Positions 40,601 through 57,807 of a stretch of DNA of 59,103 nt are shown piece by piece; position 1 is the first letter of the stretch, and the number at the start of each line of letters is the position of its first letter. Source of the stretch: a virus (lineage: Duplodnaviria; Caudoviricetes); IMG/VR virus record IMGVR_UViG_3300028588_000027, positions 1 through 59,103 of that record, one strand, 5' to 3'. Under the pieces are notes generated by a model. It saw only the letters and a list, made by a program, of their open reading frames with translations, searched no databases and was not told the DNA's origin. The translations under genes and the position numbers were made by a program.

Positions 40601-40630
40601 AAGGCCCGCATAACGCGGGCCTTTTTCTTT
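40601..40630 (+). terminator. Intrinsic terminator at the convergence of the two arms
   Basis: AAGGCCCGC-ATAAC-GCGGGCCTT followed by a T tract. Confidence 0.75.
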
Positions 40631-43600
40631 ACGGCGTGGTGCTGGTGCGCGCCTCCACCTTCTCGTTGAAGCGCTCCATCAGGGTCCGGATGCGCAGCTC
40701 GGTTTCCTTCACCCTGGCCTTGTCGCCCTTCTCGAGCAAGTCAGACTTGCGTTTGCGCAGGGCGGCAATTTCACGCTGCACCGCCTGCGCCTGGTCGGCC
40801 ATCTTCGCTTCTGGATGGTCGGCCAGGTATTCCCGCGCGCCATCCTTCGCCTGGCGCCGCCCCTCGAGCTCCTGTTCCGCCTCATTCAACTGTTTCAGGT
40901 TGTCGTAGAAGCGCGTCGACACGCTGGACTTATCGCCGGCGTCTCCGTAGAAGCGGCCGGCCAGCGGTATTTTGTACGCTGGCAGTTCCTCGCCGGTGAT
41001 GATCGCCGAGACGGTTTGCTGTGCCTTCAATGCCTCGCGCCCCACGCCTCCGGTGAGCTGGCCAATCAGGTAATCCACCTGGTCTGGCGTCGGGCTCCAC
41101 TTCCCGGGCGTGTACTCGTTGCCGCCAGTGATCGTGTTCAGGGCGTAGGAAACGGCCTTACCGACGCCGCTGGCCGTGTCCTTCGCCCGGGTATGGCCAG
41201 GCGTCGGCTTGAGGCTGTTGAAGTCTTCCTTGGCGATCTTCTTGCCCTTCCAGTCCTCGTTCATTTCCAGCGCCACGATAGGATCGGTCACGGTGAACGA
41301 CAGCGTTTGCGTCACCGATCCGCCGGCGCCGATCGGGTTGAAGGTGTCCATGATCGCGCTGGCCAGGTGCGAGACATACTTGCCTGGCTTCTTGGCGCCG
41401 CCCAGCGCGAACTCTGTCACCAGGCGGCCGGTCGTCGGCAGGAATGCGAAGCCCAGCGGGTACGGGATCGAGACGTATTTCTTTCCCCCTACCGGGATCA
41501 CCAGGTTTTTCGCGCGCACGTACTCCGGTGGCTCCTGGTCATCGAAGCCGGCCGCCGCCAAGAGGAACGCCTGCAGTACGCCAATCATCAGGCCGCCGGC
41601 GATGATCTTCTTGCCGGCCGGGCCGTTCAGGGTCTTGGCCATACGGGCTATGCCCTGTGTTGCCGCGTTAAAGAACGCATACAGGGAGTTGACCTGTGCA
41701 CCGACGGCGCCCTTGCGGTTGAAGTTGACCGTGAGATTCTTGGCCAGGCTTGCCGCGCGCTGGGGCGTCATGCCTTCGGCCTTGGCGATCTTGTACGCGG
41801 CCATCCTGGTGACGTTCTCGAGCGCCTCGTTGTAGTCACTCAGCCAGTCCAGCACGGCCTTGCCGGCCTTGCCTGCCGGGTTCATGGTCATGGCGCGCAG
41901 TTCCTTGGCCAGCTCCTTTGCGCGGTCGTCGCTGGTACTGAACATGGCGCGGTGGCCAGTAATCCCGCCTTCCTTCTGGAACTCGGCCCACAAGGCAGCA
42001 TCGGCGCCGGTCATCTGGTCCAGGCGCAGGCCATGCTTGCCGGCGGCCAGCAGCATGCGCGATGCCTCGGCCACGAATTCGACCTGCTTGCCGGCGATCG
42101 GAGTCGATGACAGGTTGACGGCGCCCTCGCCCAAATCGCGCGTCAGGTTGACCACGCCGAAAATGGGGTTGTACTGCGTGTTGACGGACGCAAACCAGCG
42201 AGTGGCCACGCCGATAATCGACAGCACGCGGTTGACGCCATCGTTGCCGATGTTGTTGATTGTCTCGGCCATGCGGCGGGCGCGCGGCTCGTCCTTGTTG
42301 AAGAAAATGAAGCGGTCTTCGCCGCCCACGCGCACCGAGACGACATGATCGCCAAGCCGTTCGCGCAGGTCCAGCACGCGCTCCACCAGGCCGGTCTTAG
42401 GGTTGACGCGGCGCTTGCGCACTTCCTCCACCAGCGCCGCGGCGTGCGCCGGCGTCAGGCCCATGGCCTGCAGTTCAGCGTCCAGGGCGGCCGGGTTCTT
42501 TTGCGGGTTGACCGGCTTCCAGAATGCTGGGTTCGGCGCCTGCAGGGCCAGGCCATACAGCGCCAGGTCCAGACGGTTCTTTTCGCCGCGCACCACGGCG
42601 CGTTCGCGCGCCATGGCCAGGTTGGCCAGGATGTTCACGACCTTGCGTTTCGAGCCCATGCGGCGCTTGCTGGCCGGGCCGCGCACGGAGAAGCCGCGGC
42701 CGGTACCGTTGCCGCCGCCGGCGTCCATGTCCTCGCGCATCAGCGGGACATAGTGCTGGTACGTGGCATTCCAGGCGTCGATAGTGTTCTGCGATTCCAG
42801 GCCATAGTCGACCAGCATCTGCTGGGTTTGCGCCGTCATGGCGTCGACGCGCGCGGCCAGGGCGTTATACGCGGCGCGCTTTGCCGGCGGCAGGCCGGCC
42901 AGGTAGTTGCGGGCGTCGGCCGTGTCGATGCCCGAACCGCCATCCTGCATGGCTGGATCGTTCGGATTGATGCTGGCGATCTGGTCGTTTGCTTCCTCGG
43001 CGTGGCGCATGTGCAGGAACTGCTCGAATTCCTCGAGCGCGACGCCGCGCGCCTGCATGTCGGTCAGCAGCGGGCGCAGCTCGCTGTTCAGGTATTCCTT
43101 GAAACCGGTTGCTGCGCGGCCGTGGAACAGTTCTTCCTGCAGGTAGGGGTCCCACTTGTCCTCGAGGCCGGTCACGACGTCGCGCACGGTGTCAACGGTG
43201 CGTTTGATGTCGATATGCTTGTCCTGCAGGACTTGAATGACGTCATCCAGGCGCGTCATGTCTGGCGCGGTCCAGGTTGCCGCCGGCGGCGGGTTGGCCA
43301 GCGCGCGCAGGGCATAATCGCCCTGGCCAAAAGCCTGCTCCACCAGCATGCGCGGAGACAGCTTCTCGCCGGTTCCTTCCAGCACGGCCTGCAGGCCGCG
43401 CAGCACAGCCGCATCCGACGGCAGGCCCAGCCAGCCGCGGGCCTTCTGCACCAGTTCGCCCAGCCAGGTCTTGGCCTTGGCCACCCACGAACCGGCCTCA
43501 TAGCGCTCGGACAGGATGCGCGTCGCGTTGACGGCCCAATACTCGGACGGGTTCGACAGCTGGTAGTGCTGGTCGTAGTCCAGCACGCCGTCGGCGAAGG

Positions 43601-46600
43601 CCTGCTTCGCACGCTTGGCTGCGGCGCTGCTGCTGGCCATGGTGAGCAAGTCGTCCATGGCGGTGCGGGTCTTCTCGTCGGCGGCAGCGTAGGCGCGGCC
43701 GAATGCCTTGCGCCAGGCCTGCACAATCTTGGCCTGGACGTCGGCCGGCATCATCCGTTCAGTGTGGTGCAGGATTTCGTGCACGGCCGTGCCTTCGTTC
43801 GCCGCGCCTTTGAACAGCGATATCACGCGCGACACCGGGTTGTACATGCCGGCGGTACCGCTTTCGCCGGCGGCGCGCAGGGAAATGCCCAAGTCCTCGG
43901 CGATCGCCGGGTTCTTGTTCAGCGCCCACAAGGCAAAGCTGACGGTCGCCTCGTCCAGTTCGCCAGTGCGGCGCGCGCGCATCAGGCGCTCCATGATCCA
44001 TTCCGGGCCACGCTCGCGCGGCTTCGGGGTTGCCTTGCTGGCGTTGCGGTCCTCGAGCGCGGACACGATGACGTCGACGCGCAACTGGAAGTCCTTGTCG
44101 GTAATCCGGCCTTCCTCGAGCGCGCGGCGCGCCGCTTTCAGCTTGGCCAAGGTGGCCACGCGCTTTGGCTCGCTGTCGGTCGGCGTGCCGGCCATCAGCG
44201 GCGGCAGCTGGTCGGAAACGTCGCGCAGCATCGACGGGTTCGACGGGTCGAACATGCCGGCGTTGCCGATGGCCGACTTCACCTGCTCAGGGGAGAACAC
44301 GACATACTGGTTTTCGTTGGCGCTTCCTTCGTAGCCGGTTTCCTCGTTGCCGTTGAAAGCGCTGGTGATGATAAGCCCGTCGTGGCCGTTTTCCTTCGCG
44401 TAGGCGATCGCGTCTTCGACGGCATACGATTCATAGTCGAGCTTCCCATTCAGGTCGATCCGGTGCGGGTTCTGCAGCGACAAATAAACCGGCATGACAT
44501 GCTCGCCCTCGCCGTAATAAATGCCGCTGCCACCGCTGGCATACCACGATGCCTCGTCTGTCTCGTCGGTGAACCAGATTGCGCCTTCGACGGATTCACC
44601 ATTACGGAAGGCGTCGCCCTCGAACTCGCCGCTGCGGCCGTGATAGACAACCATCGGCTGGCCACCTTTCATCACTTTGCTATTGCCGAACCATTTTTTA
44701 AAAGCTGCCGTATTGGTCTGGCGCTCGGCGATGTCGCGCAGCGTTGGCGCCACGATCGGGCGCCCGCGCTCGTCGGTCTGGCCGTCGAACTCGCGCCAGA
44801 ACTTGATTTGCGCCATGAAGTCCGGCGCCACCAGGTTGCCGTTGGTGTCGCGGATCGGCCGGCGCACGCCGTCGACCTCGATGGTGCGTTGGTCGGTGAT
44901 GTCGCGCAGCACCGTCTCGCCCAGCCCTGCAGAGACTTCATCCAGGGCGCCGGCTTCGTCCATGAATGCCGTGCGATCGGCGGCCGACTTGAACAGGAAC
45001 CCGCGCAGCGCGCCGCCGCCCACGAACTTGTTGTACCGGCCACCGTGTTGCTTGGCGATGGCCAGCGCCTGCTTGTACGTCTCCGGACTGGTGCGGTTGA
45101 GCATGGCGGCGCCGAACAGCGCCTCGCCGGTCTTCGTGTGCTTGAACTCGAACTGCGCATAGAAGCGCTCGGCGCCGGTGGCGCCTTCGGCCGCGGCGCG
45201 TACCTTCTTGCTGATTGGCGCGGCCGGCTTGGCTTCCTCGATTGCGATGTCTTCGGCTACCGTCTTGACGCGGCCCGGTACCGTGCTGTGTTCGAGGCGG
45301 TCGAACAGGTCTTCCACCGTCTCGGCGCTGACGTAATCGCGGCGCACCTGGTTGGGCGCCTTCTCCGGATCGGCGATCTTGTCCAGGATGATAATTTTCG
45401 TCATGGCGCCGGTACCGGCCCGGCCGAACGTGGCGGCCGGCAGATTGATTTCCGCTACCAGGTGCATGTCCTTCGGCGCATCCTCGGCGTAGAGGAAAGC
45501 ATCAAGGCGCTTGTCTGCCATGTTCCCGGTCGGCAGCAGCGCCACGATCCGGCCGCCTTCGCGCAGGTGCTTGAAGGCTTTGGCCAAGTGTGGCGTCGAC
45601 AGCGAACCGCCTTTGCCGAATGGCGGGTTCATTACGATGGCGTCGTACTTGTTGGAAACGTGTAGGTCTTCAAAGTGCTGTTGCTCGAAGCGGGCATTGC
45701 TGCCTTCGATGACCAGGCGGGCGCGGTTAATCAGCGGCGTCTCCGGCTCCACGATCGTCTTGTTCGTCTGCGCCGGGAACCAGCGCGCGATGGCGCCGTG
45801 GCCGGCGGACGGCTCCATGACGTCCTCGCCCACGCGAATATCGGCCCACTCGACCATCTTCATGCCGACGGGCTCGGGCGTGGCAAAGTAATCATTGCCC
45901 TCGGCCGACTTGCTGGCGCTGTTGCGCTTCAGCTGGCTGTAGTAGAAGGTCTTCGCCTTGTCCCATTCGGTCAGCGCCTTGGCCGTGTTGCGGTCCCGGG
46001 CCTTGCCGCCAGTGCCGTCGGTGTCGCTGACTGTCGCCGGCGCGCTGTCCTGGAAGGCTTCAATGATTGCTTCCTTCAGGCCGCGGGCCTGGTCGCCCAT
46101 GGCCAGCGCCTCGGCCGTGTCGGCGCGCTGCGCGATCGTCTCGGCAAAGGTGCGGCGTTCCCATTCGGTCCCGGTGTTCGCGTAGTGGAACAGGGCGTTC
46201 GATACCTGGCCGGTGCGGTAGATGCGGCCCTCGAGCTGAATCAGGGCGGTAGGCGTGCCTTGCATGCCGATGTTGACCATCACGCGGCGGTACTTGCCGG
46301 TGGTGTCGTGCAGGCTGATACCCTCGCGGCCCTTGTCGGACTGCAGGATGATGAGGCGAGCGCTGCCGTTGTCGTCGTTGAACTGGACTTTGTTGGCCTC
46401 GAGCTGCTTGGCCGGTACCGAACCGTTGTGCACCAGGGCGTCAGGGAATGCCGCCTGCAGCGTCTGCAGCGCCGATCGCGCCGGCACTTGTAGGCTGGCG
46501 AGGTCCGGGCGCGCGGCCTGAAATTCGCGGCCCAGCGCGGCCAGGTCGATTTCCTTGGGTGCGTTGTTCTCGTAGACCGTCGACACGCCGTTGATGCCGC

Positions 46601-48779
46601 GCATGCTGAACGGGTTGAAGGAACCGCCTTTTTTGTAGTCGTGCACGACGACGACCTTGCGGCCGGCGTCCAGCTGCGCCTGGATGCTGGGAATGGCTTC
46701 CTCGGCCTTGATCGCCTCGAGCAAGTACCGGCGCGACAGGTAATCGAACTGCTTCATCACCGGCTGATACAGGTGCTTGAATTTCGGGTGCTCGCGCATG
46801 AACTCGAGGCCTTCGTCAATGGCCGAACCCAGCGCGGATTCCACCATGACGAACTTGCGCTCGTAGTCGGCTTCCACCTCGAGCATGCGGCCCGACAGGG
46901 CGCCCTCGGCCTTGAGCCAGTTATTGAACTGGCGCGCCATCAGTCCCTGGTCGACGTTGCCGTCTGGCTCGGTCAGCTTGTGGTACCGGATGCGATAGCC
47001 GAAGTGCTGCACGAAGAAATGCGCGCGGCCGTCCTGGTTGCTGTTGCCGATCCGGCCGCCGTCGCCGTAGTTGAACAGGTAGCCCTCGGCATAGTCCACC
47101 GCCTTGACGTAGGCGAATGGCGTCGCCGACAGCATCAGGGTTTTCGGGCGCTTGATGGGGGCGTTGGCGATCGCCTCGTACTCGGCGCGCTGGCTTTCCT
47201 CGCGCTCGCTGATTTCCTTCATCAGCTTGTCGAACTCGGTACGCGCGGCCTGGTTGCCGTCGGCCTTGGCCGGCGCCGGCGGCAGCGCGGCCAGGCGGTC
47301 GTACAGGTCGCGGTTCTTCATCCGGGTGTAGGCAGACCATCCGGACGGGTGATAGGTGAGTGCCTGCAGGGACTCAAGCGCCAGCGTCTTCTTGCCGTCG
47401 GCCGCCGCCATGACGCGGTGCGATTCGTCCAGCGTCACCAAGTCCCAATTGCGGTCTGCGAGGGTACGGTTCTGGCCAAAGTTGGCGTAGGTGGTGATGA
47501 CGATGCCGGCGTCGCCGTTGTCGTCCAGGCCGTCGAGCATCTTCGCTTCCAGGCCCAGCTCGGCCAGCGAACGAATCCAGTCCTGGCCAATGCCGTCGTT
47601 CGGTACCACGACAATCTGATTGTCTTTGCCCTGGCGGGCGAAGCGGGCGATGATACCGCCGCCGGTGAAGGTCTTGCCGGTACCGGTCCCGTTGGTGAAC
47701 ATGACGCCCGGCTGCTTTTCCGGGTTGGCGAATCGGGCTTCGGCAAAGGCGACGTCTTCGCGCTGACCGTCCAGCAGGTACGGCAGCGTGGCGTCGATGT
47801 TGGCGCGGTCGCCCGGCTTGACGGGTACCGCGTTGGCTTTCTTCTGTGCTGCGCGCTTTCGGTCTAGCGGGTTGCGTGCGCCAGCAACTGCAGCAGGTAA
47901 TGCTTCTGCGTCGGGTCCAGGTTGCGATTCTTGGCGCCCAGCTCGGCCGCTTCCTCCGGCGTCTCCATCGGTGGAATCGCTTGCGCCAGGTCGCCCTTGC
48001 CCGGCTTGGCCAGGTACGTCGATATCGCTTTGCGCTCCACCAGCAACGGCACGACGTCCAGATACGCCAGCGCTACCGGCGCTTCCGCGCCCTGGCTGGT
48101 CAGTCGCTCCATCAGTGCCTGGTGCTCGTCCGTCAATTCCTGGTCCGACATCGAAAAGACTCGCTCGAGCTCCGAGTTCACCATCTGCCCGGTCGCCTTC
48201 ACGCCCTGCCACACTTCCGCGGGTACCATCAACATTGTTCTCTCCCTCGAGTTTTCCATCCCGGTAATCACGGACAAAGCGCGTGATGTAGGGTTTCATA
48301 TTAGCAGCAACTGGCTTGCCGAATTTGTCCACGACGGCCTGCACCACGGCGCGCATAACGTCCATGATGTCGCTGCCGGCGCTGGCGTAATCCTTCGCCG
48401 CTTCCTGGAACAGCGGCTTTGCCTTCGCATAGGTTTCATCGTTGAACGTCAGGCCGCTGTTGAGCTTCGTGCCGCCGAACAGCTCGCCCAGCGCGTCGAT
48501 GGCATTCACCGTGCCGCTGGCCAGGTTCTTGACGGCCGACACGGCCGCATCGCCGGCGCCGCGTTTCTTGCCGCCGCGGGCGGCGTACTGGTCGGCGACG
48601 GTCTGTTCGATGCTGGCCTGCTCCATCTTGGCCAGGTCGATCTTATCCAGGACTACCTGCTCAATCGCCGCGGCCGGGGAGAACCCGCGGGCCTCGTACT
48701 CGTCGGCCAGCGTGAGCATTTCGTTAATCGGTAACTTGTCGGCCAGCGCCAGGCGGTCGATGCAGTTAGTAAATGGCAT
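40629..48779 (-). CDS. DarB-like polyvalent injected protein: SF2 helicase, N6-adenine methyltransferase, ART-like domain, HExxH peptidase, LPD38-like C-terminus
   Basis: NGTGTGKT, DESH, SAT, QLEGRIYR; YFATP, EPSAGHG, NPPF; FKKWFG...VYHG; HEILHH; VNFNRKG...LYAFFNA. Start MPFTNC after a GGAG SD. Confidence 0.88.
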   Translation of the reverse strand: MPFTNCIDRLALADKLPINEMLTLADEYEARGFSPAAAIEQVVLDKIDLAKMEQASIEQTVADQYAARGGKKRGAGDAAVSAVKNLASGTVNAIDALGELFGGTKLNSGLTFNDETYAKAKPLFQEAAKDYASAGSDIMDVMRAVVQAVVDKFGKPVAANMKPYITRFVRDYRDGKLEGENNVDGTRGSVAGREGDRADGELGARASLFDVGPGIDGRAPGTDGATDQPGRGSAGSAGVSGRRAVAGGAQSDIDVPGQAGQGRPGASDSTDGDAGGSGRAGRQESQPGPDAEALPAAVAGARNPLDRKRAAQKKANAVPVKPGDRANIDATLPYLLDGQREDVAFAEARFANPEKQPGVMFTNGTGTGKTFTGGGIIARFARQGKDNQIVVVPNDGIGQDWIRSLAELGLEAKMLDGLDDNGDAGIVITTYANFGQNRTLADRNWDLVTLDESHRVMAAADGKKTLALESLQALTYHPSGWSAYTRMKNRDLYDRLAALPPAPAKADGNQAARTEFDKLMKEISEREESQRAEYEAIANAPIKRPKTLMLSATPFAYVKAVDYAEGYLFNYGDGGRIGNSNQDGRAHFFVQHFGYRIRYHKLTEPDGNVDQGLMARQFNNWLKAEGALSGRMLEVEADYERKFVMVESALGSAIDEGLEFMREHPKFKHLYQPVMKQFDYLSRRYLLEAIKAEEAIPSIQAQLDAGRKVVVVHDYKKGGSFNPFSMRGINGVSTVYENNAPKEIDLAALGREFQAARPDLASLQVPARSALQTLQAAFPDALVHNGSVPAKQLEANKVQFNDDNGSARLIILQSDKGREGISLHDTTGKYRRVMVNIGMQGTPTALIQLEGRIYRTGQVSNALFHYANTGTEWERRTFAETIAQRADTAEALAMGDQARGLKEAIIEAFQDSAPATVSDTDGTGGKARDRNTAKALTEWDKAKTFYYSQLKRNSASKSAEGNDYFATPEPVGMKMVEWADIRVGEDVMEPSAGHGAIARWFPAQTNKTIVEPETPLINRARLVIEGSNARFEQQHFEDLHVSNKYDAIVMNPPFGKGGSLSTPHLAKAFKHLREGGRIVALLPTGNMADKRLDAFLYAEDAPKDMHLVAEINLPAATFGRAGTGAMTKIIILDKIADPEKAPNQVRRDYVSAETVEDLFDRLEHSTVPGRVKTVAEDIAIEEAKPAAPISKKVRAAAEGATGAERFYAQFEFKHTKTGEALFGAAMLNRTSPETYKQALAIAKQHGGRYNKFVGGGALRGFLFKSAADRTAFMDEAGALDEVSAGLGETVLRDITDQRTIEVDGVRRPIRDTNGNLVAPDFMAQIKFWREFDGQTDERGRPIVAPTLRDIAERQTNTAAFKKWFGNSKVMKGGQPMVVYHGRSGEFEGDAFRNGESVEGAIWFTDETDEASWYASGGSGIYYGEGEHVMPVYLSLQNPHRIDLNGKLDYESYAVEDAIAYAKENGHDGLIITSAFNGNEETGYEGSANENQYVVFSPEQVKSAIGNAGMFDPSNPSMLRDVSDQLPPLMAGTPTDSEPKRVATLAKLKAARRALEEGRITDKDFQLRVDVIVSALEDRNASKATPKPRERGPEWIMERLMRARRTGELDEATVSFALWALNKNPAIAEDLGISLRAAGESGTAGMYNPVSRVISLFKGAANEGTAVHEILHHTERMMPADVQAKIVQAWRKAFGRAYAAADEKTRTAMDDLLTMASSSAAAKRAKQAFADGVLDYDQHYQLSNPSEYWAVNATRILSERYEAGSWVAKAKTWLGELVQKARGWLGLPSDAAVLRGLQAVLEGTGEKLSPRMLVEQAFGQGDYALRALANPPPAATWTAPDMTRLDDVIQVLQDKHIDIKRTVDTVRDVVTGLEDKWDPYLQEELFHGRAATGFKEYLNSELRPLLTDMQARGVALEEFEQFLHMRHAEEANDQIASINPNDPAMQDGGSGIDTADARNYLAGLPPAKRAAYNALAARVDAMTAQTQQMLVDYGLESQNTIDAWNATYQHYVPLMREDMDAGGGNGTGRGFSVRGPASKRRMGSKRKVVNILANLAMARERAVVRGEKNRLDLALYGLALQAPNPAFWKPVNPQKNPAALDAELQAMGLTPAHAAALVEEVRKRRVNPKTGLVERVLDLRERLGDHVVSVRVGGEDRFIFFNKDEPRARRMAETINNIGNDGVNRVLSIIGVATRWFASVNTQYNPIFGVVNLTRDLGEGAVNLSSTPIAGKQVEFVAEASRMLLAAGKHGLRLDQMTGADAALWAEFQKEGGITGHRAMFSTSDDRAKELAKELRAMTMNPAGKAGKAVLDWLSDYNEALENVTRMAAYKIAKAEGMTPQRAASLAKNLTVNFNRKGAVGAQVNSLYAFFNAATQGIARMAKTLNGPAGKKIIAGGLMIGVLQAFLLAAAGFDDQEPPEYVRAKNLVIPVGGKKYVSIPYPLGFAFLPTTGRLVTEFALGGAKKPGKYVSHLASAIMDTFNPIGAGGSVTQTLSFTVTDPIVALEMNEDWKGKKIAKEDFNSLKPTPGHTRAKDTASGVGKAVSYALNTITGGNEYTPGKWSPTPDQVDYLIGQLTGGVGREALKAQQTVSAIITGEELPAYKIPLAGRFYGDAGDKSSVSTRFYDNLKQLNEAEQELEGRRQAKDGAREYLADHPEAKMADQAQAVQREIAALRKRKSDLLEKGDKARVKETELRIRTLMERFNEKVEARTSTTP
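47864..48235 (-). CDS. Nested out-of-frame gene (123 aa) inside the polyvalent protein linker
   Basis: GAGGGAGAG SD before ATG; G/C-ending codons favour this frame; globular helical composition. Confidence 0.65.
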   Translation of the reverse strand: MLMVPAEVWQGVKATGQMVNSELERVFSMSDQELTDEHQALMERLTSQGAEAPVALAYLDVVPLLVERKAISTYLAKPGKGDLAQAIPPMETPEEAAELGAKNRNLDPTQKHYLLQLLAHATR

Positions 48780-49068
48780 GGGCGGCAATCTCCATCAGGA
48801 TAGCGGTAATGATTTCTTCCTCGTCGTCGCTGTCGACGTCGAGGGGAATAAAATATTGCTGGGAAGAACGACTATGATACCGGGCAACACCATCGCCAGG
48901 TGCAAAAGGTGGGACTGGCGCGGCGCTGGTGGCGCGCATGTCCAGCTCGGCCCAGCCGACAGCCACATGGAACGACCTGGCCTGCAGGTCGAGCTCGGCC
49001 CAGCCCACCGCGACATGGTGCGGCCGGGCCAGGACGTCGAGCGCGGCCCATCCGACGAAGACCGCCAT
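48766..49068 (-). CDS. Small protein with three V.VGWA.LD repeats and acidic C-terminus
   Basis: Start coupled to the upstream TAA; 16-aa repeats visible in DNA and protein. Confidence 0.65.
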   Translation of the reverse strand: MAVFVGWAALDVLARPHHVAVGWAELDLQARSFHVAVGWAELDMRATSAAPVPPFAPGDGVARYHSRSSQQYFIPLDVDSDDEEEIITAILMEIAAHAIY

Positions 49069-50702
49069 TACAGTGCCTCGAAGTCGAAGCGCAAGGCGTT
49101 GCCGTCCGTGATGGCGGCCACCTGCTGGGGCGTGAGCGATTGCGCGAAGATCGTCGGTTCCGCCGGCAGGGCTTCGTGCACCCACGCGGCAATCTCCACG
49201 GCGCCCTGCAGCAGCACCACGCGCACGCCGTCGCCGGTATTGCTCCACAGCTGGTATCGCATCACTGGTGTGGCGCCAGGCGGCGGCAGCGCCACCGCGT
49301 TGGCCTTCGTGCTGCAGCGCGCGCCAGGCATGTCGGCCTCGATGTACCTGGTAGCGTCGGCGCTTGGCTCGTTGATCGCCGCGGCCAGGTCGCCGCCGTC
49401 CGACGCGCGCCAGCCGCCGGGCGCGATTGTGCTGTCCGGACGCGAGTAGCGTGGGTCGACGTCGACGGTGATCGCGCCGGCGCCGGCCTCGTTGTGCTGC
49501 TGGCCAGCGGCGCCGGCAAGGTTCTGGACCTGGCTGATTGCGCCGGTACCGGCCACGTTCACTTGTGCGCCTGGCGCGCCGGCCAGGCCTTCGGGCTCGG
49601 GCTGCGCGTCGACCGTGATCGCGCCGGTACCGCCCTGGTTCTCCTGCAGGCCGCCGGCGCCCGTCAGGCTCTGCACCTGGCCGATGCCGTCGGCGCCGCC
49701 TTCATTGCCCTGCAGGCCTGGCGCGCCGGCCAGCTGCTGCACCTGGTCGATTGCGCCGGCCGCGCCGGTGTTGGTCTGCACGCCTGCAGCGCCGGCCAGG
49801 TTCTGCTTCTGGCCGATCGCGCCGGCGCCGCCGGTATTCGCCTGCGTGCCGCCGGCGCCGGCGACGTTCTGCACCTGGCCGATCTTGCCCACGCCGCCCT
49901 GGTTGGCCTGCAGGCCGGCCGCGCCTACCAGGTTAATCGGGCCTACTGGAGCCGCTGCCAGCATGATCCGATCATCGTCGGAGTCGATGTCGTCAAACAT
50001 GCTCCACGGATTCGCCGACAGCAAGCGCGCTTCTTCCAGCGCAAACGCGCCGGTCATGTGCGCGAACAGCGACACCGTGCCGTCCAGGTAGCTGCTGCCA
50101 GTGTTGCGCCGGCCGATGTTGATGTCTGCCGTAGTGCCGTTGTTTGAGGTGACGAACGACGACGGCGAGCTGCCGGTCTGGCGCGCGCCATTCAGGAACA
50201 TGAAGTGGGTCGAGCCATCCCAGCCGAAGACGACCGTGTACGGTTTGTGCGCCACCATGGCGGCGTTACTGGCTGCTTGCGCAGGCTGGCCAGTTGAATT
50301 GCCGAACCAGTATCCTAAGCGTCCATTGGTCGTGTACCCCAGCTGGATGCCGTTTGTTGAAGCACTGGCCGCCACTTGTCGGTAGCTCAACATGCGGGTT
50401 GCAACGGTCGTCACGGCCAGCGTGAACGAACACACGATCATAAACGGCTGCGCCAGCGAGAAGTCGACCACGCCGGCCGGTGGCGAGATAAGCGCGTATG
50501 CGGATTTGCTGGCTTCAAACCGGCGAGCTACGCCATGCGCCGATGCGGCTTGCGTCGGCCCATTCAGGTAAGTGATCCGGGCGCTACTGCCGAAAATGTC
50601 ATCTATCGAGGCGCCAAGGATGGCGCCCACTCCCTTGAATCTGGCGAACTCAGGGCGCAGGCGTGCGATGCCTTGCGGCTGGCGGAGCATCGGAACGCCC
50701 AT
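49068..50702 (-). CDS. Virion-associated protein with LamG/ConA-like domain and 20-aa repeats
   Basis: VVFGWDG....FLNG...INIGRR...LDG.V...AL...E...L..NPW; about seven (Q)NLAGAAG.Q.N.GGAGAI repeats. Confidence 0.7.
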   Translation of the reverse strand: MGVPMLRQPQGIARLRPEFARFKGVGAILGASIDDIFGSSARITYLNGPTQAASAHGVARRFEASKSAYALISPPAGVVDFSLAQPFMIVCSFTLAVTTVATRMLSYRQVAASASTNGIQLGYTTNGRLGYWFGNSTGQPAQAASNAAMVAHKPYTVVFGWDGSTHFMFLNGARQTGSSPSSFVTSNNGTTADINIGRRNTGSSYLDGTVSLFAHMTGAFALEEARLLSANPWSMFDDIDSDDDRIMLAAAPVGPINLVGAAGLQANQGGVGKIGQVQNVAGAGGTQANTGGAGAIGQKQNLAGAAGVQTNTGAAGAIDQVQQLAGAPGLQGNEGGADGIGQVQSLTGAGGLQENQGGTGAITVDAQPEPEGLAGAPGAQVNVAGTGAISQVQNLAGAAGQQHNEAGAGAITVDVDPRYSRPDSTIAPGGWRASDGGDLAAAINEPSADATRYIEADMPGARCSTKANAVALPPPGATPVMRYQLWSNTGDGVRVVLLQGAVEIAAWVHEALPAEPTIFAQSLTPQQVAAITDGNALRFDFEAL

Positions 50703-52191: not shown

Positions 52192-55100
52192 TCAGCCTTT
52201 CATGCACTTGATGAGTGCTTCGAGATTGGTGATGTCTTCGGCGACGTTGGCCAGCGCCTGGTCGGCCGGTACCTGGATCGTCTCGGTAACGCCTTCGTCG
52301 GCGACAAATACTTCCTGGTCGACCTTGACGCGCTTGTAGAAGGCCAGCGGGATCGCCGGCGCCGGCGGGCGCGGCTTACGGGCCTTTGCCACCTTTGCCT
52401 TTTCGTCGGCGAGGGTGGTCGGCTTGGCCTCGACTTCCTCGAGTACGGTGTCAAACATCGCGTCGATGTCGGCATCGCTGGCCATCGCCGTCGCTGCCTT
52501 GCCGCCGTTCTCGATCTTCGACAGGCCGGCCTCGAATGCTTCGATTTCGAGGTCGCCATTTTGGTACTGCTCTACCAGGCTATCGGCCGCGGTACCGATG
52601 ACGGCGGCGCGCTCGAAGGCATCTTCCTGGCGGCGCGTTTCCGGGTCGTTCATCTGGCGCTCTGCGATCTCGCGCAGCACCGACGGACGGCGCGCTGGCG
52701 GTAGGCGCTTCAGCACGAAACCCTTGTCCTTGGGCTCGATTTCGTGCGTGTCCTCGAGGTCATAAGTCTGCTGGAATGCGATCGCTGACTTTTCGCTCTT
52801 GAACGGCTTGCCGTTTTGCTGGGTGACGGTGTTATCGCCCTGTAGGCGGCGCACGACCGCATCACGCTCGGCGCGCGCAACCTTCTCGTTGTAATCGCCT
52901 TCGACGGCAACAGGATCGGTACCGGACTGAACCAGCTTGACGTAGGCGTTTGCCTGGTCCGCCAGCGGCATGTCGCCGAAAGCATCGGCATTGCGCACGC
53001 CGCCGGCCTTGTACAGCGCCTTGAGGTCACCGCGCTGGCCCAGCGCTTCCAGGATTTCGACGGGGTTCACCTGGAAGTCGGTACGAAGCGCCAGCGCATC
53101 GTATTCAGTGCCAGATTTGGCACTTTTTCCCGGATTCGTTGCAGTTTTTCCCGATTCCGTTGCGCTTTTCCCGCTTTCCGATGCAGTTGATGCGCCGAAC
53201 GGCTCGCCCTGGCGCTTGACGATGAACTCGTAGTAGCCGTTGCGCTGCACGTTCAGGCCGATAACGTCGTTCAGGTCGACCGTGTAGGCTTCGACCGTGC
53301 GCCCATCGTTGGCGAACCTCTTGGCCAGCTTCTTGTCGCCCATGTAGACGACTTGGGTATCGGCATTCCACTTTTCGCGCGGCGCCTCGGCGCGGTACAG
53401 CGTTACCGTGTTGCCGTACTGCTGGCGCAGGTGTTCGCGGGTATTGGTCCAGGCCGCACGCATTTCATCGAGGGTGTAGGTTCCCTTCTTGAGTGCGCGA
53501 TTGATTTGCGTCGGCTTGCCAGGCATGACGCCCTGCTGGTCTTCCAGCATGTCCCACTTCAACATCGAGTCGATGCCGGCGGTTTCCCTTTCAGCGATGG
53601 CCAGCAGCTCGTCGGTTATTGCGATGTCCGGCGCTGCGGCCTTGGCTGGCGCGGCTGGTGCCGACGCATCGAACAGGCCGCCCTGGCCAGCCAGGGAATC
53701 CATGGCGTCCTGGCCCAGCTGGAAGTTTTCGGCGCTAGCGTCCTGGCGTGCGCGAATGTCGGCGTCGTCGCGCTCCTTCTTGCGCTGCGCCTCGAGCTTG
53801 TCGCGCTCGGCCTGGCGCGCCTTGGTCGCGGCTTCGTCAGAGTCCTGGCGGGCGCGGACTTCGGCCGGGGTGTAGCTGCTTAGGAGGTCGCCGCCCGGCG
53901 CAGCAGTTCCGCCAGCAACTGCCGGCGCTGGCTCGGCGACAGCTTGGCCAGCGTCGCCTGGATTTCTGCTCGAGCCTGGTCGGCTTTGGAGTCCGAAGAT
54001 TGCATCTAGTTCCTCATCAGTAATGTTATCGGACGACAGGCCGCCGTCCAGGGGAATATCGGCATCCTGCAGCAGCTCGACAGCGAGCGCGGCGGCGGCC
54101 GGGGAAAGGGAATCGGCTACGTCCTCGACGGTGGCCTGGTCCTCGACGGTGATCGCTTCGCCGGTGGCGGCCTCGATCGCCTGGCGCTGCTGCTCGAGCG
54201 CGGCGTGCGCGGCCACGACTTCATCATAGACCTGCTCGGCCGTTTTGCCGTCGGTGTCGATGTCCAGGCTGCGCGCCTCGTCCTGCAGGCGCTGGTCGGT
54301 GGTCGGCATGTCGGCCTCGAGCATGCCGGCCGGCTGGATGACTTCGCGGCCAGCGACGGCGCGCTGGATCATGTCGGCCAGCTTGCGCGTGCCGCCGGTG
54401 TCGTCGTTCGCGTCGACGTCCTGCTGGGTCAAGAAACCCTCATCGACAGCCAGCAGCGCCAGCTCGTCCAGGCGTTTGCCGGCATGGCGCAGGACCGGGC
54501 CATAGCCTGGCGCCATGCGGTTGCCCTTGCGGCCCTTCTCGAGCCCGATGTCTGCCTGGTCCTTGAGGGATACGCCGTGGTTGGCTAGGAATGCCAGGAA
54601 CGGGTTATCGCGCTGCAGGCGATCGCGCAGGCGCTTGGCCTGCTGTTTCGCCTGCAGGCTGCGCACTTCCGGATTGCTGACGCCGGCGCCGAGGGTGATC
54701 GGGTTCGATGCGTCGACGCCGCGGTGCTTGCGGGTGTCGATGCCCAGCACGCGCGTGGCGTTGTCTTCCTCGCGGTCCAGGTGCTTCTTGTCGAACTTCT
54801 CGACCTTCTTGCCGGCCTTCTTGGCCTTGGCCTCGCGTTCGCCGTGCTTGGCCTGCTGGTACCGGCGCGGCGCCAGGCCGTGCATGGCCTGCACGATGTC
54901 AGTCAGCTGGCGCTGCAGGTCGCGCGCTTCGGGCGCGGCGTCGCTGTGCACTTCGCCGTCCTTGTAGCCCAGCTTGGCCAGCTGGGGCGCGATCGCGTTC
55001 CACTTGGCCACCGCGGCGTCAACGATCGGGCGCGGCAGGGCGCCGGCCGTGTCGGCCTTCTCGGCAATGAAGCGCTCCGCGGTCATCGGCTCGATGTCGG

Positions 55101-57807
55101 CCTGCTTGATGTTGCCGCCGGCGGTGGCGGCGCGGCGCGCGATCGTCTGGCGCGCCTTGCCTTCGCGGAAAGCCACCGTGCTTTCGGTCAGCTGCCCATT
55201 GCGGGCGTCGACTTCGGCGCCGTCCATGATCGCGCGCGCCATACCTTCGTCGCCGGCGGCGCGCAGCTCGTCGGCCATGGACTGGATGCGCGGCGCGAAC
55301 TCGCTCGAGCGCCATGCGGCATCCGGGCTCGAGCCTGGCGATTTCAGGCGCGTCTCTGCATTGGCTGCAGCCTGGCGCACTTCGTCGTCCTGGCGCTGGT
55401 GCTTCTGGCGCGCGGCCTCGATGCCGGTCGATGGCGCGGCCGGTGCGCTCGAGGTGTCGACGCCGGCGCTGGGGAACTCGCGCACAGCGTCCAGCAGCTG
55501 CGCGATCGGCGCGTTCAGGCGGATCGCCTTGACCGGGGCGCCCTGCTCGGCCGCCGCCAGCCATTGGTGGTGGCCGTCCAGCACATGGCCGTCGCTCGAC
55601 ACCAGGATGGAACGATTGCCGCCCTCGTAGTCGATGGCCTTCTGCACCTTCGACAGCGAGAATTCCGCCTGCGTCGGCTTGAGAGAATCCGCCGGCACTT
55701 CCACCTGTTCGTGGGTGATGCCGCGCGCGTTCAGGAACTGCGTCATTGCGCCGCGGTGTTCCGCTTTGATCTGTGGCATTTCCGCGCGCGGGATGCCCAG
55801 CGTGCCGGTTTCGGTCGGGAATGCGTGCCAGTCGGCCGCCTGGTCGACGTCTGGAGTAATCCGGTCGGTCAGGGTCGGGATGTCGGCGGCCATGCGCCAT
55901 ACGCTCGGGGAGCGTTGATTTTTACCAGCAGAATCCAGCACTGGCGCGGCCTGGCCAGGTGCTGGTAAATTTTCGCCGGTCATTGCTGCCGGATCGTTAC
56001 CAGGTGCTGCAGCCGGACCGTCTTCCCAATTGCTGAAAAAGTCGTCGGGCAGGCCCAGCTCGCGCGCCATTTGGGCGTCCTGCGCGCGCGTGTCGACCGG
56101 CGCCGGCGCAGCAGCTGCAGGTGCACCAATGCCGGCGGCCTGCTCGAGCGCGTCAATATCGGCGGCGGTGGCGTGCGGAGTCGACACGACAGCCTGCGCG
56201 GCGGCGATTGCTTCGTCTACGGTGGTTGCGGCGCCAATGTCGGCGATGGTGGCAGCTGGAGCCGCTGCAGGCGGCTGGCCAGCGACATCGGACCAGGTTG
56301 GCTCTACGCGCCCGCCTGGCGCTGCAGGCGCTGCACCTGGTGCTGCAGGCGCGCCGTTCGGGCTCAGGCCGTTGGTTCCCCACTTGGCCAGGGCCGCCTG
56401 GCGCGCGGCCTCGGCGGCGGCGCTGCCATCGTCCGGAGCGACGTTCTCGCCCAGCGCCAGATGCGTGCCGCCGCCCATGGCGGCGCCCAGCGTAGCGGCG
56501 AATGCCATGCGCTTCATGGTGTTGTTCGGGTCCAGCATGACGCGGCCGGTACCGACTTGTTCGCCCAGCGCGTTGCCGAATTCCTCGCCGGCTTCCTGCG
56601 CGCCTTCCTTGCCGGCGGCGGCGATGAACTTGCCGGCCGCCTGCAGGGTGGTGCGGCCGGCGGTCAGGTCGCCGGCGATGCGGCGCGCAATCTCGCCTTC
56701 GGCGCCGCCCTTGGTGGCGATGCCGGCCAGCATGGAAACGGCCGCCGACACCATGGCCGCCTGGTAGCGGTTGCCCATGCTCTCGTTTTTCAGGGATTCG
56801 CTGGTGAACGTGTCGGATGCGTTCTGTGCGGCGATCGTGCCGATTGTGGCGGTGGTGGCCGCGCCGCGGATCGCGTTCGCGCCCATGCCCAGCGCTACGC
56901 CGCCGCGCACGGTACCGGCGGCGACGCCGGCCGGCAGGAACATGCTGCCAATGGTGGTGATGCCCTGGTCTACCAGCACTTCCGGATTGTCCGCCAGGTA
57001 GCCGAACAGGTCGCCCACGCTGGCGTTTTGGTCGGCCATCATCGCGCCGAATTCCTTGCCCTGCTCGGTCAGGCTGGCATGCGCAACAACCTGGTCGATG
57101 GCCTTCATGCCTTCGGCCAGGTAGTCGGACGTATCTTTACCCACCTTGTCGGCCGACATCAGGCGGCCGATGTCAGCCACGCCTTTTACTGCAGTCGGGC
57201 CGATCTTGAGCGCGGCTGCAGCGACGTTGCGCACGTTCTTGACGGTGTTGCCGGCCAGGTTCTTAGCCGAATACTTTTCGGCGTCCAGCTTCGCATTGCG
57301 CGCATCCAGGGCGTTGTCCTCGCGGGCCTTGGCCATGATGCGGGCATACGATGCGTTGGCGGCGTTCGCCTTCTGGCTGGCCAGTTGCTCGGCGCGCGCC
57401 ACGTTGTCGGCCGGCGCAATCGCCGCCATGCGCGGGTCCAGCGGCTCGGCGCGTTCCTTGGCCGTCACCCTGGCCCAAGTGAAGTCGCCGATGCCGTCCG
57501 GCGCCGGCGCGCGCTCGCCGCTGGCCATTCGGTCCAGCACGGTCTTTTCCTTGCCTTCCGGCGGCACGATTGGCACGTTCCGGATTGCGTCAGGTGCGCC
57601 GTCCACCAGGCCGCCGACAGCACGCGCGGCGCTGCCGATCAGGCCAATTAGGCCGCCGGATTCTTCGGGCGCCGCTGGTGCGGCTGGTGCGGCGGCTTTG
57701 GATGCCGCCGGCGGGAATTTCTTACGGATGACGGCCGTGATAGCGGCGTCGTCCATGTCGTCCGGAAATTCGGCTTCTGTGCCGTCTGGCAGTTCAACGA
57801 TTTGCAT
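52192..57807 (-). CDS. Large injected polyvalent protein (ejection-type N-terminus, ParB/Srx-like domain, ART-like domain)
   Basis: VELPDG...EFPD N-terminus; Gly/Ala hydrophobic region with KEG.QE..EE; LKPTQ...ILVSSDGHVLDGHHQW; TLYRA...EFIV. Confidence 0.8.
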   Translation of the reverse strand: MQIVELPDGTEAEFPDDMDDAAITAVIRKKFPPAASKAAAPAAPAAPEESGGLIGLIGSAARAVGGLVDGAPDAIRNVPIVPPEGKEKTVLDRMASGERAPAPDGIGDFTWARVTAKERAEPLDPRMAAIAPADNVARAEQLASQKANAANASYARIMAKAREDNALDARNAKLDAEKYSAKNLAGNTVKNVRNVAAAALKIGPTAVKGVADIGRLMSADKVGKDTSDYLAEGMKAIDQVVAHASLTEQGKEFGAMMADQNASVGDLFGYLADNPEVLVDQGITTIGSMFLPAGVAAGTVRGGVALGMGANAIRGAATTATIGTIAAQNASDTFTSESLKNESMGNRYQAAMVSAAVSMLAGIATKGGAEGEIARRIAGDLTAGRTTLQAAGKFIAAAGKEGAQEAGEEFGNALGEQVGTGRVMLDPNNTMKRMAFAATLGAAMGGGTHLALGENVAPDDGSAAAEAARQAALAKWGTNGLSPNGAPAAPGAAPAAPGGRVEPTWSDVAGQPPAAAPAATIADIGAATTVDEAIAAAQAVVSTPHATAADIDALEQAAGIGAPAAAAPAPVDTRAQDAQMARELGLPDDFFSNWEDGPAAAPGNDPAAMTGENLPAPGQAAPVLDSAGKNQRSPSVWRMAADIPTLTDRITPDVDQAADWHAFPTETGTLGIPRAEMPQIKAEHRGAMTQFLNARGITHEQVEVPADSLKPTQAEFSLSKVQKAIDYEGGNRSILVSSDGHVLDGHHQWLAAAEQGAPVKAIRLNAPIAQLLDAVREFPSAGVDTSSAPAAPSTGIEAARQKHQRQDDEVRQAAANAETRLKSPGSSPDAAWRSSEFAPRIQSMADELRAAGDEGMARAIMDGAEVDARNGQLTESTVAFREGKARQTIARRAATAGGNIKQADIEPMTAERFIAEKADTAGALPRPIVDAAVAKWNAIAPQLAKLGYKDGEVHSDAAPEARDLQRQLTDIVQAMHGLAPRRYQQAKHGEREAKAKKAGKKVEKFDKKHLDREEDNATRVLGIDTRKHRGVDASNPITLGAGVSNPEVRSLQAKQQAKRLRDRLQRDNPFLAFLANHGVSLKDQADIGLEKGRKGNRMAPGYGPVLRHAGKRLDELALLAVDEGFLTQQDVDANDDTGGTRKLADMIQRAVAGREVIQPAGMLEADMPTTDQRLQDEARSLDIDTDGKTAEQVYDEVVAAHAALEQQRQAIEAATGEAITVEDQATVEDVADSLSPAAAALAVELLQDADIPLDGGLSSDNITDEELDAIFGLQSRPGSSRNPGDAGQAVAEPAPAVAGGTAAPGGDLLSSYTPAEVRARQDSDEAATKARQAERDKLEAQRKKERDDADIRARQDASAENFQLGQDAMDSLAGQGGLFDASAPAAPAKAAAPDIAITDELLAIAERETAGIDSMLKWDMLEDQQGVMPGKPTQINRALKKGTYTLDEMRAAWTNTREHLRQQYGNTVTLYRAEAPREKWNADTQVVYMGDKKLAKRFANDGRTVEAYTVDLNDVIGLNVQRNGYYEFIVKRQGEPFGASTASESGKSATESGKTATNPGKSAKSGTEYDALALRTDFQVNPVEILEALGQRGDLKALYKAGGVRNADAFGDMPLADQANAYVKLVQSGTDPVAVEGDYNEKVARAERDAVVRRLQGDNTVTQQNGKPFKSEKSAIAFQQTYDLEDTHEIEPKDKGFVLKRLPPARRPSVLREIAERQMNDPETRRQEDAFERAAVIGTAADSLVEQYQNGDLEIEAFEAGLSKIENGGKAATAMASDADIDAMFDTVLEEVEAKPTTLADEKAKVAKARKPRPPAPAIPLAFYKRVKVDQEVFVADEGVTETIQVPADQALANVAEDITNLEALIKCMKG
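53120..53182. repeat. Three imperfect 21-bp tandem repeats
   Basis: gcactttttcccggattcgtt / gcagtttttcccgattccgtt / gcgcttttcccgctttccgat. Confidence 0.75.
53880..54005 (-). CDS. Nested out-of-frame small gene (41 aa) inside the large protein linker
   Basis: GAGGA SD 5 nt before ATG; MQSSDSKADQARAEIQATLAKLSPSQRRQLLAELLRRAATS, amphipathic helices. Confidence 0.5.
   Translation of the reverse strand: MQSSDSKADQARAEIQATLAKLSPSQRRQLLAELLRRAATS

Follow-up and report, generated by a model that had tools for sequence, protein, structure and literature searches.

Can one stretch of a large phage gene be read in two frames, and if so, which frame came first and what does the smaller product do? Gene finders forbid long same-strand overlaps. 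The question arises here from a 59,103-nt stretch of DNA (hereafter the window), which is a complete virus record of 59 kb and includes genes for terminase, portal and tail fibre. On its minus strand, a giant polyvalent-protein ORF (40629..48788) runs for 2719 codons from TTG 48788, ATG 48779 being its likelier start. An earlier note, made from the letters of the window, had proposed that a second gene is overprinted inside this "DarB-like" giant. The nested gene (47864..48235, minus strand) has 123 codons from an ATG to a TAG stop, and its frame is +1 to that of the giant ORF, because 48788-48235 = 553 = 3x184+1. Its product is acidic, with a pI of 5.0.

Architecture of the giant gene

The giant protein consists, in order, of an N-terminal region of ~184 aa, a linker, an SNF2/ResIII helicase, a methyltransferase, an ART-PolyVal domain and an LPD38 domain. 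Pfam places ResIII at residues 354-463, Helicase_C at 784-860, Helicase_C_4 at 810-906, MTS at 990-1083, ART-PolyVal at 1375-1513 (E 3e-20) and LPD38 at 2418-2609 (E 6e-40). By these matches, many unrelated enzymatic and LPD domains are joined in one phage polypeptide, as in polyvalent proteins, a class known from phages and conjugative elements, and the helicase, methyltransferase, ART-PolyVal and LPD38 make-up is that of the class to which P1 DarB and the "DarB-like" proteins of Bcep22 and JC1 belong (Iyer et al. 2017, PMC5512222). The text of that paper contains neither "overlap" nor "frameshift", and both of its uses of "nested" refer to hairpin structure. A passage of the JC1 report describes the DarB-like protein of that phage as found in virions by mass spectrometry (PMC9144972). 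"DarB-like" is also the name that relatives carry in their annotation. For the window, "DarB-like" is best kept as a label only: nested homologues are absent from P1 darB (region, E<=10) and from Bcep22 gp75. Orthology with P1 DarB was rejected, since the P1 darB region lacks the nested homologue and P1 is not among the matches to the helicase segment at E<=1e-10.

The linker is what the main frame makes of the overlap (47865..48236, minus strand; giant-protein residues 185-308). It is rich in G, A, D, R, S and P, is predicted to be disordered and has 11% hydrophobic residues, against 32% in the nested product; the earlier note had described this span as a low-complexity linker ahead of the helicase. 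Upstream, the N-terminal region (48237..48788, minus strand) matches no PHROG family and is not conserved among relatives, with the exception of Ruegeria phage 45A6 (only L004 is similar, phmmer E 7e-6). Downstream, a conserved N-terminal lead-in of the helicase module (47673..47863, minus strand) reaches as far as Walker A (residue 367). From 48212 to 47702 the main frame contains no ATG, GTG or TTG, so that the helicase lead-in is translatable only if the overlap is read through. The place of the nested gene just ahead of the helicase is constant, whatever lies upstream: its stop falls 34-65 residues ahead of Walker A in 100 of 107 loci.

Start signal and codon composition

The strong Shine-Dalgarno sequence that had been noticed ahead of the nested ATG is there: GAGGGAGAG (48240..48248, minus strand) is separated from it by 4 nt (AACA), and is read in the main frame as Glu-Gly-Glu. 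Such signals recur in the relatives. A core motif (GGAG, GAGG or AGGA at -18..-4) precedes 90 of 111 nested starts, compared with 984 of 10214 other ATGs (9.6%) in the same giant ORFs, and is missing from the other 21 nested starts. The start codon is ATG in 109/111 and GTG in 1/111. Judged from the conserved ATG and Shine-Dalgarno, the embedded gene is provided with a start signal of its own.

Codon composition changes frame at the same place. In a GC frame plot, main-frame GC3 is 0.78-0.95 outside the span and drops to 0.33-0.47 between ~48300 and 47890. Within the span, GC at main position 1 (the third position of nested codons) climbs to 0.80-0.85 (nested GC3 is 0.82-0.85 in the gene), in agreement with the G/C-ending codons reported before. 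Thus, across the span, it is the nested frame that bears the normal GC1/GC2/GC3 coding signature of the genome, and this switch is the single instance in the whole 8.2-kb gene.

Recurrence among relatives

A nested homologue is present in 142/142 loci, comprising 111 distinct sequences at GC contents of 0.36-0.70, and the main frame spans it in 110 of the 111. When IMG/VR loci were fetched by the helicase alone, the homologue again lay at +1 with the main frame open, in 28/28 and 80/80 cases (108/108), with profile matches from E ~1e-50 to 1e-9. The protein alignment of the family is gapless from 36% to 70% GC. In GenBank, tblastn with the 123-aa product matched 6 records, and every match falls at +1 inside a giant CDS of the annotation; the nested arrangement is also that of Pseudomonas phage Skulduggery and of a Comamonas replicon, and the cultured phages that have it number six. 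The nested gene is unlisted in the giant-gene annotations inspected, those of Serratia phage Parlo, Klebsiella phage ZX1, Vibrio phages D274 and 1.232.O, Ruegeria phage 45A6, Skulduggery and the Comamonas replicon. In metagenome protein sets, 573 cluster representatives match the family at E<=1e-3, most of them 115-140 aa long and aligned from residue 1; "hypothetical protein" was the most specific name carried by the ten representatives that were checked. The nested gene accompanies one helicase clade, recognisable by its motif TNGTGTGK. At E<=1e-10, the helicase segment of the window finds matches in only 8 phage records of GenBank, from 6 phages.

A few loci differ from the common pattern. 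L059, the one relative of its kind, has an in-frame TAA within the nested gene. In L056, a 1.2-kb contig, the main frame is closed and the helicase is absent downstream. In L129 and L136 the profile match starts at position 28 only.

Two open frames under different selection

In the window, both frames are open, as had been claimed, and the main frame has no stop within the span. For this single sequence the observation is not significant: with the nested protein fixed and its codons resampled, the main frame is open in 22.6% of resamples. The relatives are another matter. Across 109 distinct regular sequences, 462 main-frame stops are expected under synonymous resampling that keeps the nested protein and 0 are seen, and 150 nested-frame stops are expected when the linker peptide is kept (n=109) and 0 are seen; the loci in these counts, as in the conservation counts below, are related to one another and so cannot be taken as independent events. 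Per locus, 1-21 stops interrupt the third frame, with a mean of 10 (n=109). In genomes at 36-46% GC, 6-14 main-frame stops would be expected per locus. The contrast of 462 (main) and 150 (nested) expected stops with none seen puts the openness of both frames beyond chance.

Substitutions tell which product is being kept. They are most frequent at nested codon position 3, then position 1, then position 2, in each of 5 divergence bins, and identity is higher in the nested than in the main-frame protein in 655/666 pairs. This comparison of the two frames across homologues, which the earlier note had called for, indicates that purifying selection acts on the nested protein. A 39-kb contig from an independent run (X2) spans 47600-48600 with 47 substitutions and 0 indels, so the frames are not an assembly artefact and the main frame is not broken here. 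Main position 3 takes 21/22 of the X2 changes outside the overlap versus 2/18 inside, these being listed changes that do not include 22 of 62 differences (four runs). As far as comparative sequence evidence goes, region 47864-48235 is a real dual-coding region. The proposal of a real nested gene is thus upheld by its conservation, by the periodicity of substitutions, by the conserved ATG and Shine-Dalgarno, by stop avoidance in both frames and by a confident predicted fold, to which we now turn.

Predicted fold and family

The folded-looking helical product of the earlier reading has its counterpart in structure prediction. For the nested protein, AF2 returns 8 helices at pLDDT 85 and pTM 0.77 (9 sequences), a confident model that predicts a soluble all-helical fold. 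For the main-frame product of the same DNA, it returns no secondary structure at pLDDT 47 and pTM 0.13 (31 sequences), and the linker is accordingly predicted to be disordered.

Searches with Pfam and NCBIfam gave no consistent match for 33 members of the nested family. PHROGs gave none for the protein of the window or the L002 member, and L028, alone of the three nested proteins scanned, matched weakly (E 2e-4). On these profile comparisons, the family is absent from Pfam, NCBIfam and PHROGs. Foldseek against PDB and BFVD found nothing at E<=0.001 (best E 1.4), and a PDB profile search found only designed TPR proteins (E 7e-4). Family, fold and sequence searches of the nested protein thus gave no functional lead.

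Origin of the overlap

Same-strand embedded genes with their own ribosome-binding sites are familiar from phiX174-type phages (B in A, E in D, K), whose genomes are tiny and single-stranded and in which compression is the usual explanation. Here, by contrast, the genome is 59 kb long and the overlap is a single conserved exception in an 8-kb gene. Among large dsDNA phages, for which compression of the genome explains dual coding poorly, a case as clean and as deeply conserved as this locus is unusual.

Which frame is the older? The earlier note had the small gene overprinted inside the giant one. The overlap stands, and the direction is probably the reverse. Codon usage is closer to that of the genome in the nested than in the main frame in 84/109 loci (in the window, r = 0.67 for nested versus 0.12 for main), the linker is disordered and fast-evolving, and one free-standing nested homologue exists as DNA (L056). 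Because of these features, the nested frame is probably ancestral and the linker of the giant protein the younger frame, an ancestry read from codon usage and one free-standing homologue and not from a rooted tree. Longer called homologues with varied C-terminal extensions also exist, and are known from protein calls alone.

A similar arrangement is found in hepatitis B virus, where the polymerase spacer lies over the preS/S gene: passages of PMC8227390 describe a poorly conserved spacer between two enzymatic parts, in another frame of a smaller and better conserved gene, and propose as its origin a short gene between two coding segments that were later joined across it. The arrangement is shared here, and so is the proposed origin. 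The differences are that hepatitis B is a reverse-transcribing animal virus with unrelated proteins, whereas here a small gene is wholly embedded, with an overlap of ~370 nt, in a dsDNA tailed phage.

We consider it very likely that 47864-48235 is read in two frames, with a linker laid over an older gene and a small protein that is initiated internally; this reading best explains the observations jointly. Ribosomes coming from the start of the giant gene would read through the overlap and make a disordered spacer of ~124 residues, which would connect the N-terminal part with a body made up of the SNF2-type helicase, methyltransferase, ART and LPD38. Other ribosomes would start on the same mRNA at the internal Shine-Dalgarno and ATG, one base out of phase, and their product would be a protein of its own, 123 aa long, folded, all-helical and mildly acidic. 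Selection keeps the sequence of the small protein and asks of the main frame little beyond openness and a polar composition. Part of the G/R/A/D bias of the linker is mechanical, since the second position of main-frame codons is the first of nested codons. We envision that an older small gene once sat between an upstream gene and a helicase gene, and that translation across this small gene in a different frame gave rise to the giant protein.

Possible roles of the small protein

Dual coding may well be real and the small protein still unrelated to the giant one: an independent factor, for example in anti-defence or host takeover, that the overlap has welded in place. We regard this as quite possible, at somewhat less than an even chance. 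The free-standing form seen as DNA in L056 and the called homologues with varied C-terminal extensions are consistent with such a factor, and the overlap by itself would explain co-inheritance. On the other side stand the constant place just before the helicase and the presence of the gene in 108/108 helicase-first loci; a partner role predicts both of these as well.

That the small protein works with the helicase module encoded on its own mRNA, for instance by helping in its assembly or packaging or by curbing its activity in the producing cell, is a tentative suggestion; the link to the helicase is one of co-occurrence, which physical overlap would force even without interaction. The stronger version, in which the embedded gene is a dedicated, internally initiated partner of the helicase-methylase module, needed for its folding, capsid loading or restraint, and the overlap is an evolved device, appears rather unlikely. 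If a partner role were true, the birth of the linker by reading across would have welded the two genes so that neither can be lost or exchanged alone, and the locus would be a dsDNA-phage counterpart of hepatitis B P/S and of Rz/Rz1, conserved from 36% to 70% GC.

Two phage systems serve as models for such a partner. In P1, the small Dar accessory proteins Ulx, DdrA/B and Hdf are needed to load DarB into capsids. Here, too, a small protein is genetically tied to a giant protein of anti-restriction type, and this likeness is our model for a packaging helper; in P1, however, the genes of these accessory proteins stand apart, with no overlap. In lambda-like phages, Rz1 has its own start at +1 within Rz, and the two spanin products bind each other. 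In both cases a longer phage gene wholly encloses a small one that is read from the same strand in a different frame, and the binding of the two spanin products is the model for the partner hypothesis. The systems differ in that our nested protein is predicted to be soluble and helical, its host gene encodes a polyvalent helicase/methylase rather than a lysis protein, and there is no sequence relation. An embedded class of spanins is mentioned for phage JC1 in part of the report on that phage (PMC9144972).

Both kinds of protein were considered as identities for the nested product and rejected. An o-spanin (Rz1-type) does not fit, since the 123-aa product has no cysteine, hence no lipobox, and is predicted to be a soluble 8-helix protein. 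As for a Ulx-type protein, hhalign of A3 against P1 Ulx gave a probability of 0.1% (E 0.41).

Whatever its role, the nested gene points to a component that has so far been missing from the phage proteins acting against host defences, a widespread class. With one frame folded and conserved and the other disordered and fast-evolving, the locus is a natural test bed for the origin and persistence of overlapping genes, and also for the assembly of multi-domain polyvalent proteins by reading across intervening genes. The nested gene is directly testable, because a mutation that silences it can be silent in the giant gene: in the window, AAT to AAC turns the nested ATG into ACG and keeps Asn.

Alternatives to two-frame reading

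Could the locus instead hold three cistrons (an upstream protein, the small protein and the helicase protein), in which chance or hitch-hiking would keep the main frame open and the helicase would start by reinitiation or at a non-canonical codon? The open main frame of the window, not significant taken singly, a linker frame that is off-frame in composition and predicted disordered, and the closed main frame of L056 would all suit this arrangement. It is nevertheless very improbable given that main-frame stops are absent from all 109 loci, genomes at 36-46% GC included, while the third frame is full of them; that in the window no ATG, GTG or TTG is available to start the conserved lead-in of the helicase; and that the upstream part has no stop codon of its own in any of the 109 loci.

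Dual coding by internal initiation has also to be weighed against a +1 ribosomal frameshift, which would yield a shorter product, a fusion of the N-terminal part and the nested domain. In favour of this, the offset is +1 throughout, and in one called protein from Bradyrhizobium (P0151) the tail of an upstream-type domain is fused in frame with the nested domain. Against a frameshift, 109/111 nested frames begin with an ATG exactly at the first aligned residue, behind a core Shine-Dalgarno at the frequency given above; a nested-frame stop lies at most 5 codons (0-5) upstream of that ATG in 24/109 loci, and in 9 it adjoins the ATG; the alignment of most called homologues begins at their own residue 1; and the upstream domain is variable among relatives. 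We think a frameshift hardly likely.

That the nested ORF is a silent by-product, conserved through the main-frame protein or a nucleic-acid constraint, would sit with its low language-model recognition score (a score that, according to the tool, says nothing either way), but is strongly disfavoured by the lesser conservation of the main-frame product in nearly all pairs, by the gapless alignment and confident predicted fold, by the conserved Shine-Dalgarno sites and avoided nested stops, and by the concentration of substitutions at nested position 3, the first position of main-frame codons.

An open frame inside the giant gene

The window, 59,103 bp long, is a complete virus record and contains terminase, portal, tail-fibre and replication genes. 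Its giant polyvalent-protein ORF occupies 40629-48788 on the (-) strand (2719 codons), and Pfam places along the protein a ResIII/SNF2 helicase (residues 354-463), Helicase_C (784-860), Helicase_C_4 (810-906), a methyltransferase (990-1083), ART-PolyVal (1375-1513) and LPD38 (2418-2609). The ORF is listed from TTG 48788; ATG 48779, three codons downstream and 10 nt after a GGAG, is more likely to be the start.

Within it, on the same strand and in the +1 frame, lies the nested ORF at 47864-48235 (-), which runs from an ATG through 123 aa to a TAG. Its start is preceded by the strong Shine-Dalgarno sequence GAGGGAGAG at 48240-48248 (-) and the spacer AACA. Both frames are open, and the earlier note, which had reported this shifted frame and its ribosome-binding site, was right on each count. 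It had also called the main frame a low-complexity linker. The main-frame reading of the overlap is rich in G, A, D, R, S and P, with 11% hydrophobic residues vs 32% in the nested product. This frame has no ATG, GTG or TTG from 48212 to 47702, which is four codons short of the Walker A motif, and therefore the conserved helicase lead-in can be made only by reading through the overlap.

The codon bias claimed for the nested frame appears as a clean switch in the codon-position GC plot. Main-frame GC3 is 0.78-0.95 on either flank and 0.33-0.47 within the overlap, where GC at main position 1 (nested position 3) climbs to 0.80-0.85. This switch is found nowhere else in the 8.2-kb giant gene. An assembly frameshift, the reading in which the main frame is broken here, is excluded because an independent sequencing run (X2) yielded a 39-kb contig that spans 47600-48600 with 47 substitutions and zero indels. 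Chance is harder to dismiss from the window alone: when the nested protein was fixed and its codons were resampled, the main frame of this 65% GC window stayed open in 22.6% of trials. An open main frame in the window alone is thus not beyond chance, and the case was built on relatives.

A second giant ORF at 52192-57807 (-), of 1871 aa, has PHROG matches to families of unknown function only, and several of its stretches have a fading GC3 signal where the main frame encodes Ala/Pro/Gly-rich linkers. One of these stretches, 56457-55828, was translated in all frames; stops interrupt the other frames, which excludes an overlapping gene there.

Recurrence in relatives

When 50,697 phage records were searched by tblastn with the 123-aa product, six records matched, representing five phages (Serratia Parlo, Klebsiella ZX1, Vibrio D274, Vibrio 1.232.O and Ruegeria 45A6), at 28-33% identity and 93-96% coverage, each time within an annotated giant CDS and +1 to it. 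Pseudomonas phage Skulduggery carries a homologue (E 7e-41), again +1 to the annotated CDS, as does a 57.7-kb Comamonas replicon (NZ_CP083940.1). The nested gene is absent from P1 darB and Bcep22 gp75.

Pooling gave 142 loci with 111 distinct nested sequences, at a locus GC of 0.36-0.70. Since 34 loci were retrieved for their similarity to the nested product and so contain the gene by construction, co-occurrence is tested only by the loci retrieved with nothing but the helicase segment. All 28 such loci have a nested homologue immediately upstream of the helicase, at +1 and with the main frame open; the same +1 homologue and open main frame recur in 80/80 of a second set (the best 80 of 326 matching stretches), which has some contigs in common with the first. 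In GenBank, the helicase segment at E<=1e-10 is found in only 8 records, from 6 phages, and the nested gene is present in 6/6.

In 110 of the 111 distinct sequences the main frame runs across the whole nested gene. Between the nested stop and the helicase Walker A that follows it there are 34-65 residues in 100/107 loci; the other seven have an extra main-frame segment inserted between overlap and helicase, which widens the gap to 125-252 residues. At the nucleotide level, several hundred bases separate the end of the nested gene from the helicase match in L013, L015, L016, L100, L102, L105, L121, L123 and L140. In a low-GC group (L028-L035, L130, L137, L139 and L141; GC 0.36-0.41) the host ORF has only ~1245 codons, some of these records being long (67-89 kb). 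It contains hardly anything beyond a ~190-aa N-terminal part, the overlap and the helicase, and it marks the minimal conserved module. In L129 and L136 the match to the family profile begins only at position 28.

Nested-frame stops in homologues, which could have spoken against the gene, were looked for among the 111 distinct sequences, and a single broken frame was found: L059:1904-2290, on a metagenome contig of GC 0.41, has an in-frame TAA after ~44 codons while its giant frame is open. A recoded stop, decay of this copy or an error in sequencing could each account for it.

Genes embedded on the same strand are already known, with Rz/Rz1, phiX174 and the hepatitis B P/S overlap as examples. 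In the main texts of the literature searched, among them the paper that introduced polyvalent proteins, no description was found of this family, of the gene that hosts it or of how widely it occurs. None of the seven inspected giant-gene annotations (Parlo, ZX1, D274, 1.232.O, 45A6, Skulduggery, Comamonas NZ_CP083940.1) lists the nested gene, and the giant gene goes under five product names across them: DarB-like antirestriction, PLxRFG protein, N-6 adenine-specific DNA methylase, LPD38 domain-containing protein and hypothetical protein.

Selection compared between frames

To compare the frames we resampled synonymous codons in 109 loci, leaving out L059 and L056, a free-standing homologue. 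With the nested protein kept, 462 main-frame stops were expected (0.75-13.5 per locus) and 0 observed; with the linker peptide kept, 150 nested-frame stops were expected and again 0 observed, counts that are not independent events because the loci are related. These loci range over 36-70% GC and down to ~20% identity, and their third frame holds 1-21 stops per locus (mean 10).

The substitutions follow the nested frame. Among 37 distinct sequences (666 pairs), differences fall in the order nested position 3, position 1, position 2 in all five divergence bins (0.34, 0.20 and 0.13 in the 15-30% bin), and amino-acid identity is greater in the nested than in the main frame in 655/666 pairs. The X2 contig, from a close relative, repeats this on a short scale: outside the overlap, main position 3 takes 21 of 22 listed changes, and inside it the 18 listed changes divide into 2 at main position 3, 8 at nested position 3 and 8 at nested position 1 (counts that refer to the 40 listed of 62 differences found over four runs). 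Judged from these patterns and from stop avoidance, the nested frame is under purifying selection at the protein level, and the main frame is held open and otherwise drifting.

Start signal and predicted fold

The nested gene could be entered by frameshifting or by initiation of its own. Starts in the 111 distinct sequences comprise 109 ATG and 1 GTG, the remaining one being the 3' piece of the broken L059 gene. In 90/111 of them a Shine-Dalgarno core (GGAG, GAGG or AGGA) is found at -18..-4, against 984/10,214 (9.6%) of the other ATGs in the same giant ORFs, and a nested-frame stop lies 0-5 codons upstream of the ATG in 24/109 loci, immediately upstream in 9. Both features speak for independent initiation over frameshifting. 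A promoter/terminator scan of 47600-49200 found one weak site only, upstream of the giant ORF. Nothing promoter-like was detected internally ahead of the nested gene, which would most simply be translated from the giant gene's mRNA.

The nested product was said to look folded and helical, and AlphaFold2 agrees: from only 9 sequences, it predicts eight helices with pLDDT 85 and pTM 0.77. The main-frame peptide (31 sequences) has pLDDT 47, pTM 0.13 and zero secondary structure. Selection, start signals, stop avoidance, the predicted fold and recurrence together make it very probable that this is a real nested gene, as the earlier note had held.

Which frame is older

The earlier note's title had the small gene overprinted inside the giant one; the reverse is probable. 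In 84/109 loci, codon usage in the nested frame is the closer match to that of the remaining giant gene, with r = 0.67 for the nested and 0.12 for the main frame in the window. The linker is disordered and fast-evolving, and the domain upstream of the overlap varies among relatives. Moreover, the 1158-bp metagenome contig L056 (GC 0.65) has a free-standing homologue of 162 aa at 195-680, with the main (-1) frame closed at both ends and no helicase after it, which suggests that the family also exists outside the overlap. From these four observations we infer that the small gene is ancestral and the linker the overprinted frame. By the criteria that review PMC8227390 summarises, they make the linker the younger frame. 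The review also outlines a model for hepatitis B virus, in which two polymerase segments flanked a short S gene and became joined by a spacer in another frame, and this matches the origin proposed here for nested gene and linker. The linker's G/R-richness follows partly from geometry, main codon position 2 being nested position 1, which is G-rich.

Possible functions

Family, fold and sequence searches gave no functional lead. For the nested protein and its family, Pfam, PHROGs and NCBIfam returned nothing consistent; Foldseek against PDB and BFVD gave nothing at E<=0.001 (best E 1.4), a PDB sequence-profile search returned designed TPR proteins only, and ESM Atlas held no usable match for the nested protein. 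A relationship to P1 Ulx was rejected by hhalign, and the product lacks cysteine and so is not an Rz1-type lipoprotein. The idea of a DNA mimic was dropped because the family (median length 124 aa) is only mildly acidic, with a median pI of 4.9 and a net charge of -4.

From strict co-occurrence and constant position we tentatively propose that the small protein, translated from the mRNA it shares with the helicase module, may act as a partner of that module, perhaps by aiding its folding or packaging or by restraining its activity. The overlap would by itself enforce both co-occurrence and position, so a function unrelated to the helicase module is about as likely as this partner role.

The wider protein family

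A 33-member profile searched against 1.84 billion proteins matched 573 cluster representatives (50% identity level) at E<=1e-3 and 455 at E<=1e-10. Among the 150 matches listed, most are 115-140 aa long, with alignments that begin at residue 1, and about a quarter are longer; ten representatives checked had no name beyond 'hypothetical protein'. The gene occurred in only 2 of a sample of 401 genomes from one bacterial phylum, one of the two being the centre genome. Pfam gave no match on 10 longer homologues, and no locus was found among viral contigs with the called homologues P0130, P0061, P0013 and P0094 as queries. In six called homologues of 250-557 aa (P0130, P0061, P0094, P0128, P0078 and P0151) the nested domain is N-terminal and is followed by varied extensions that lack Pfam matches. 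P0151 is encoded on a Bradyrhizobium chromosome, and in it the nested domain is joined in frame to the tail of an upstream-type domain.
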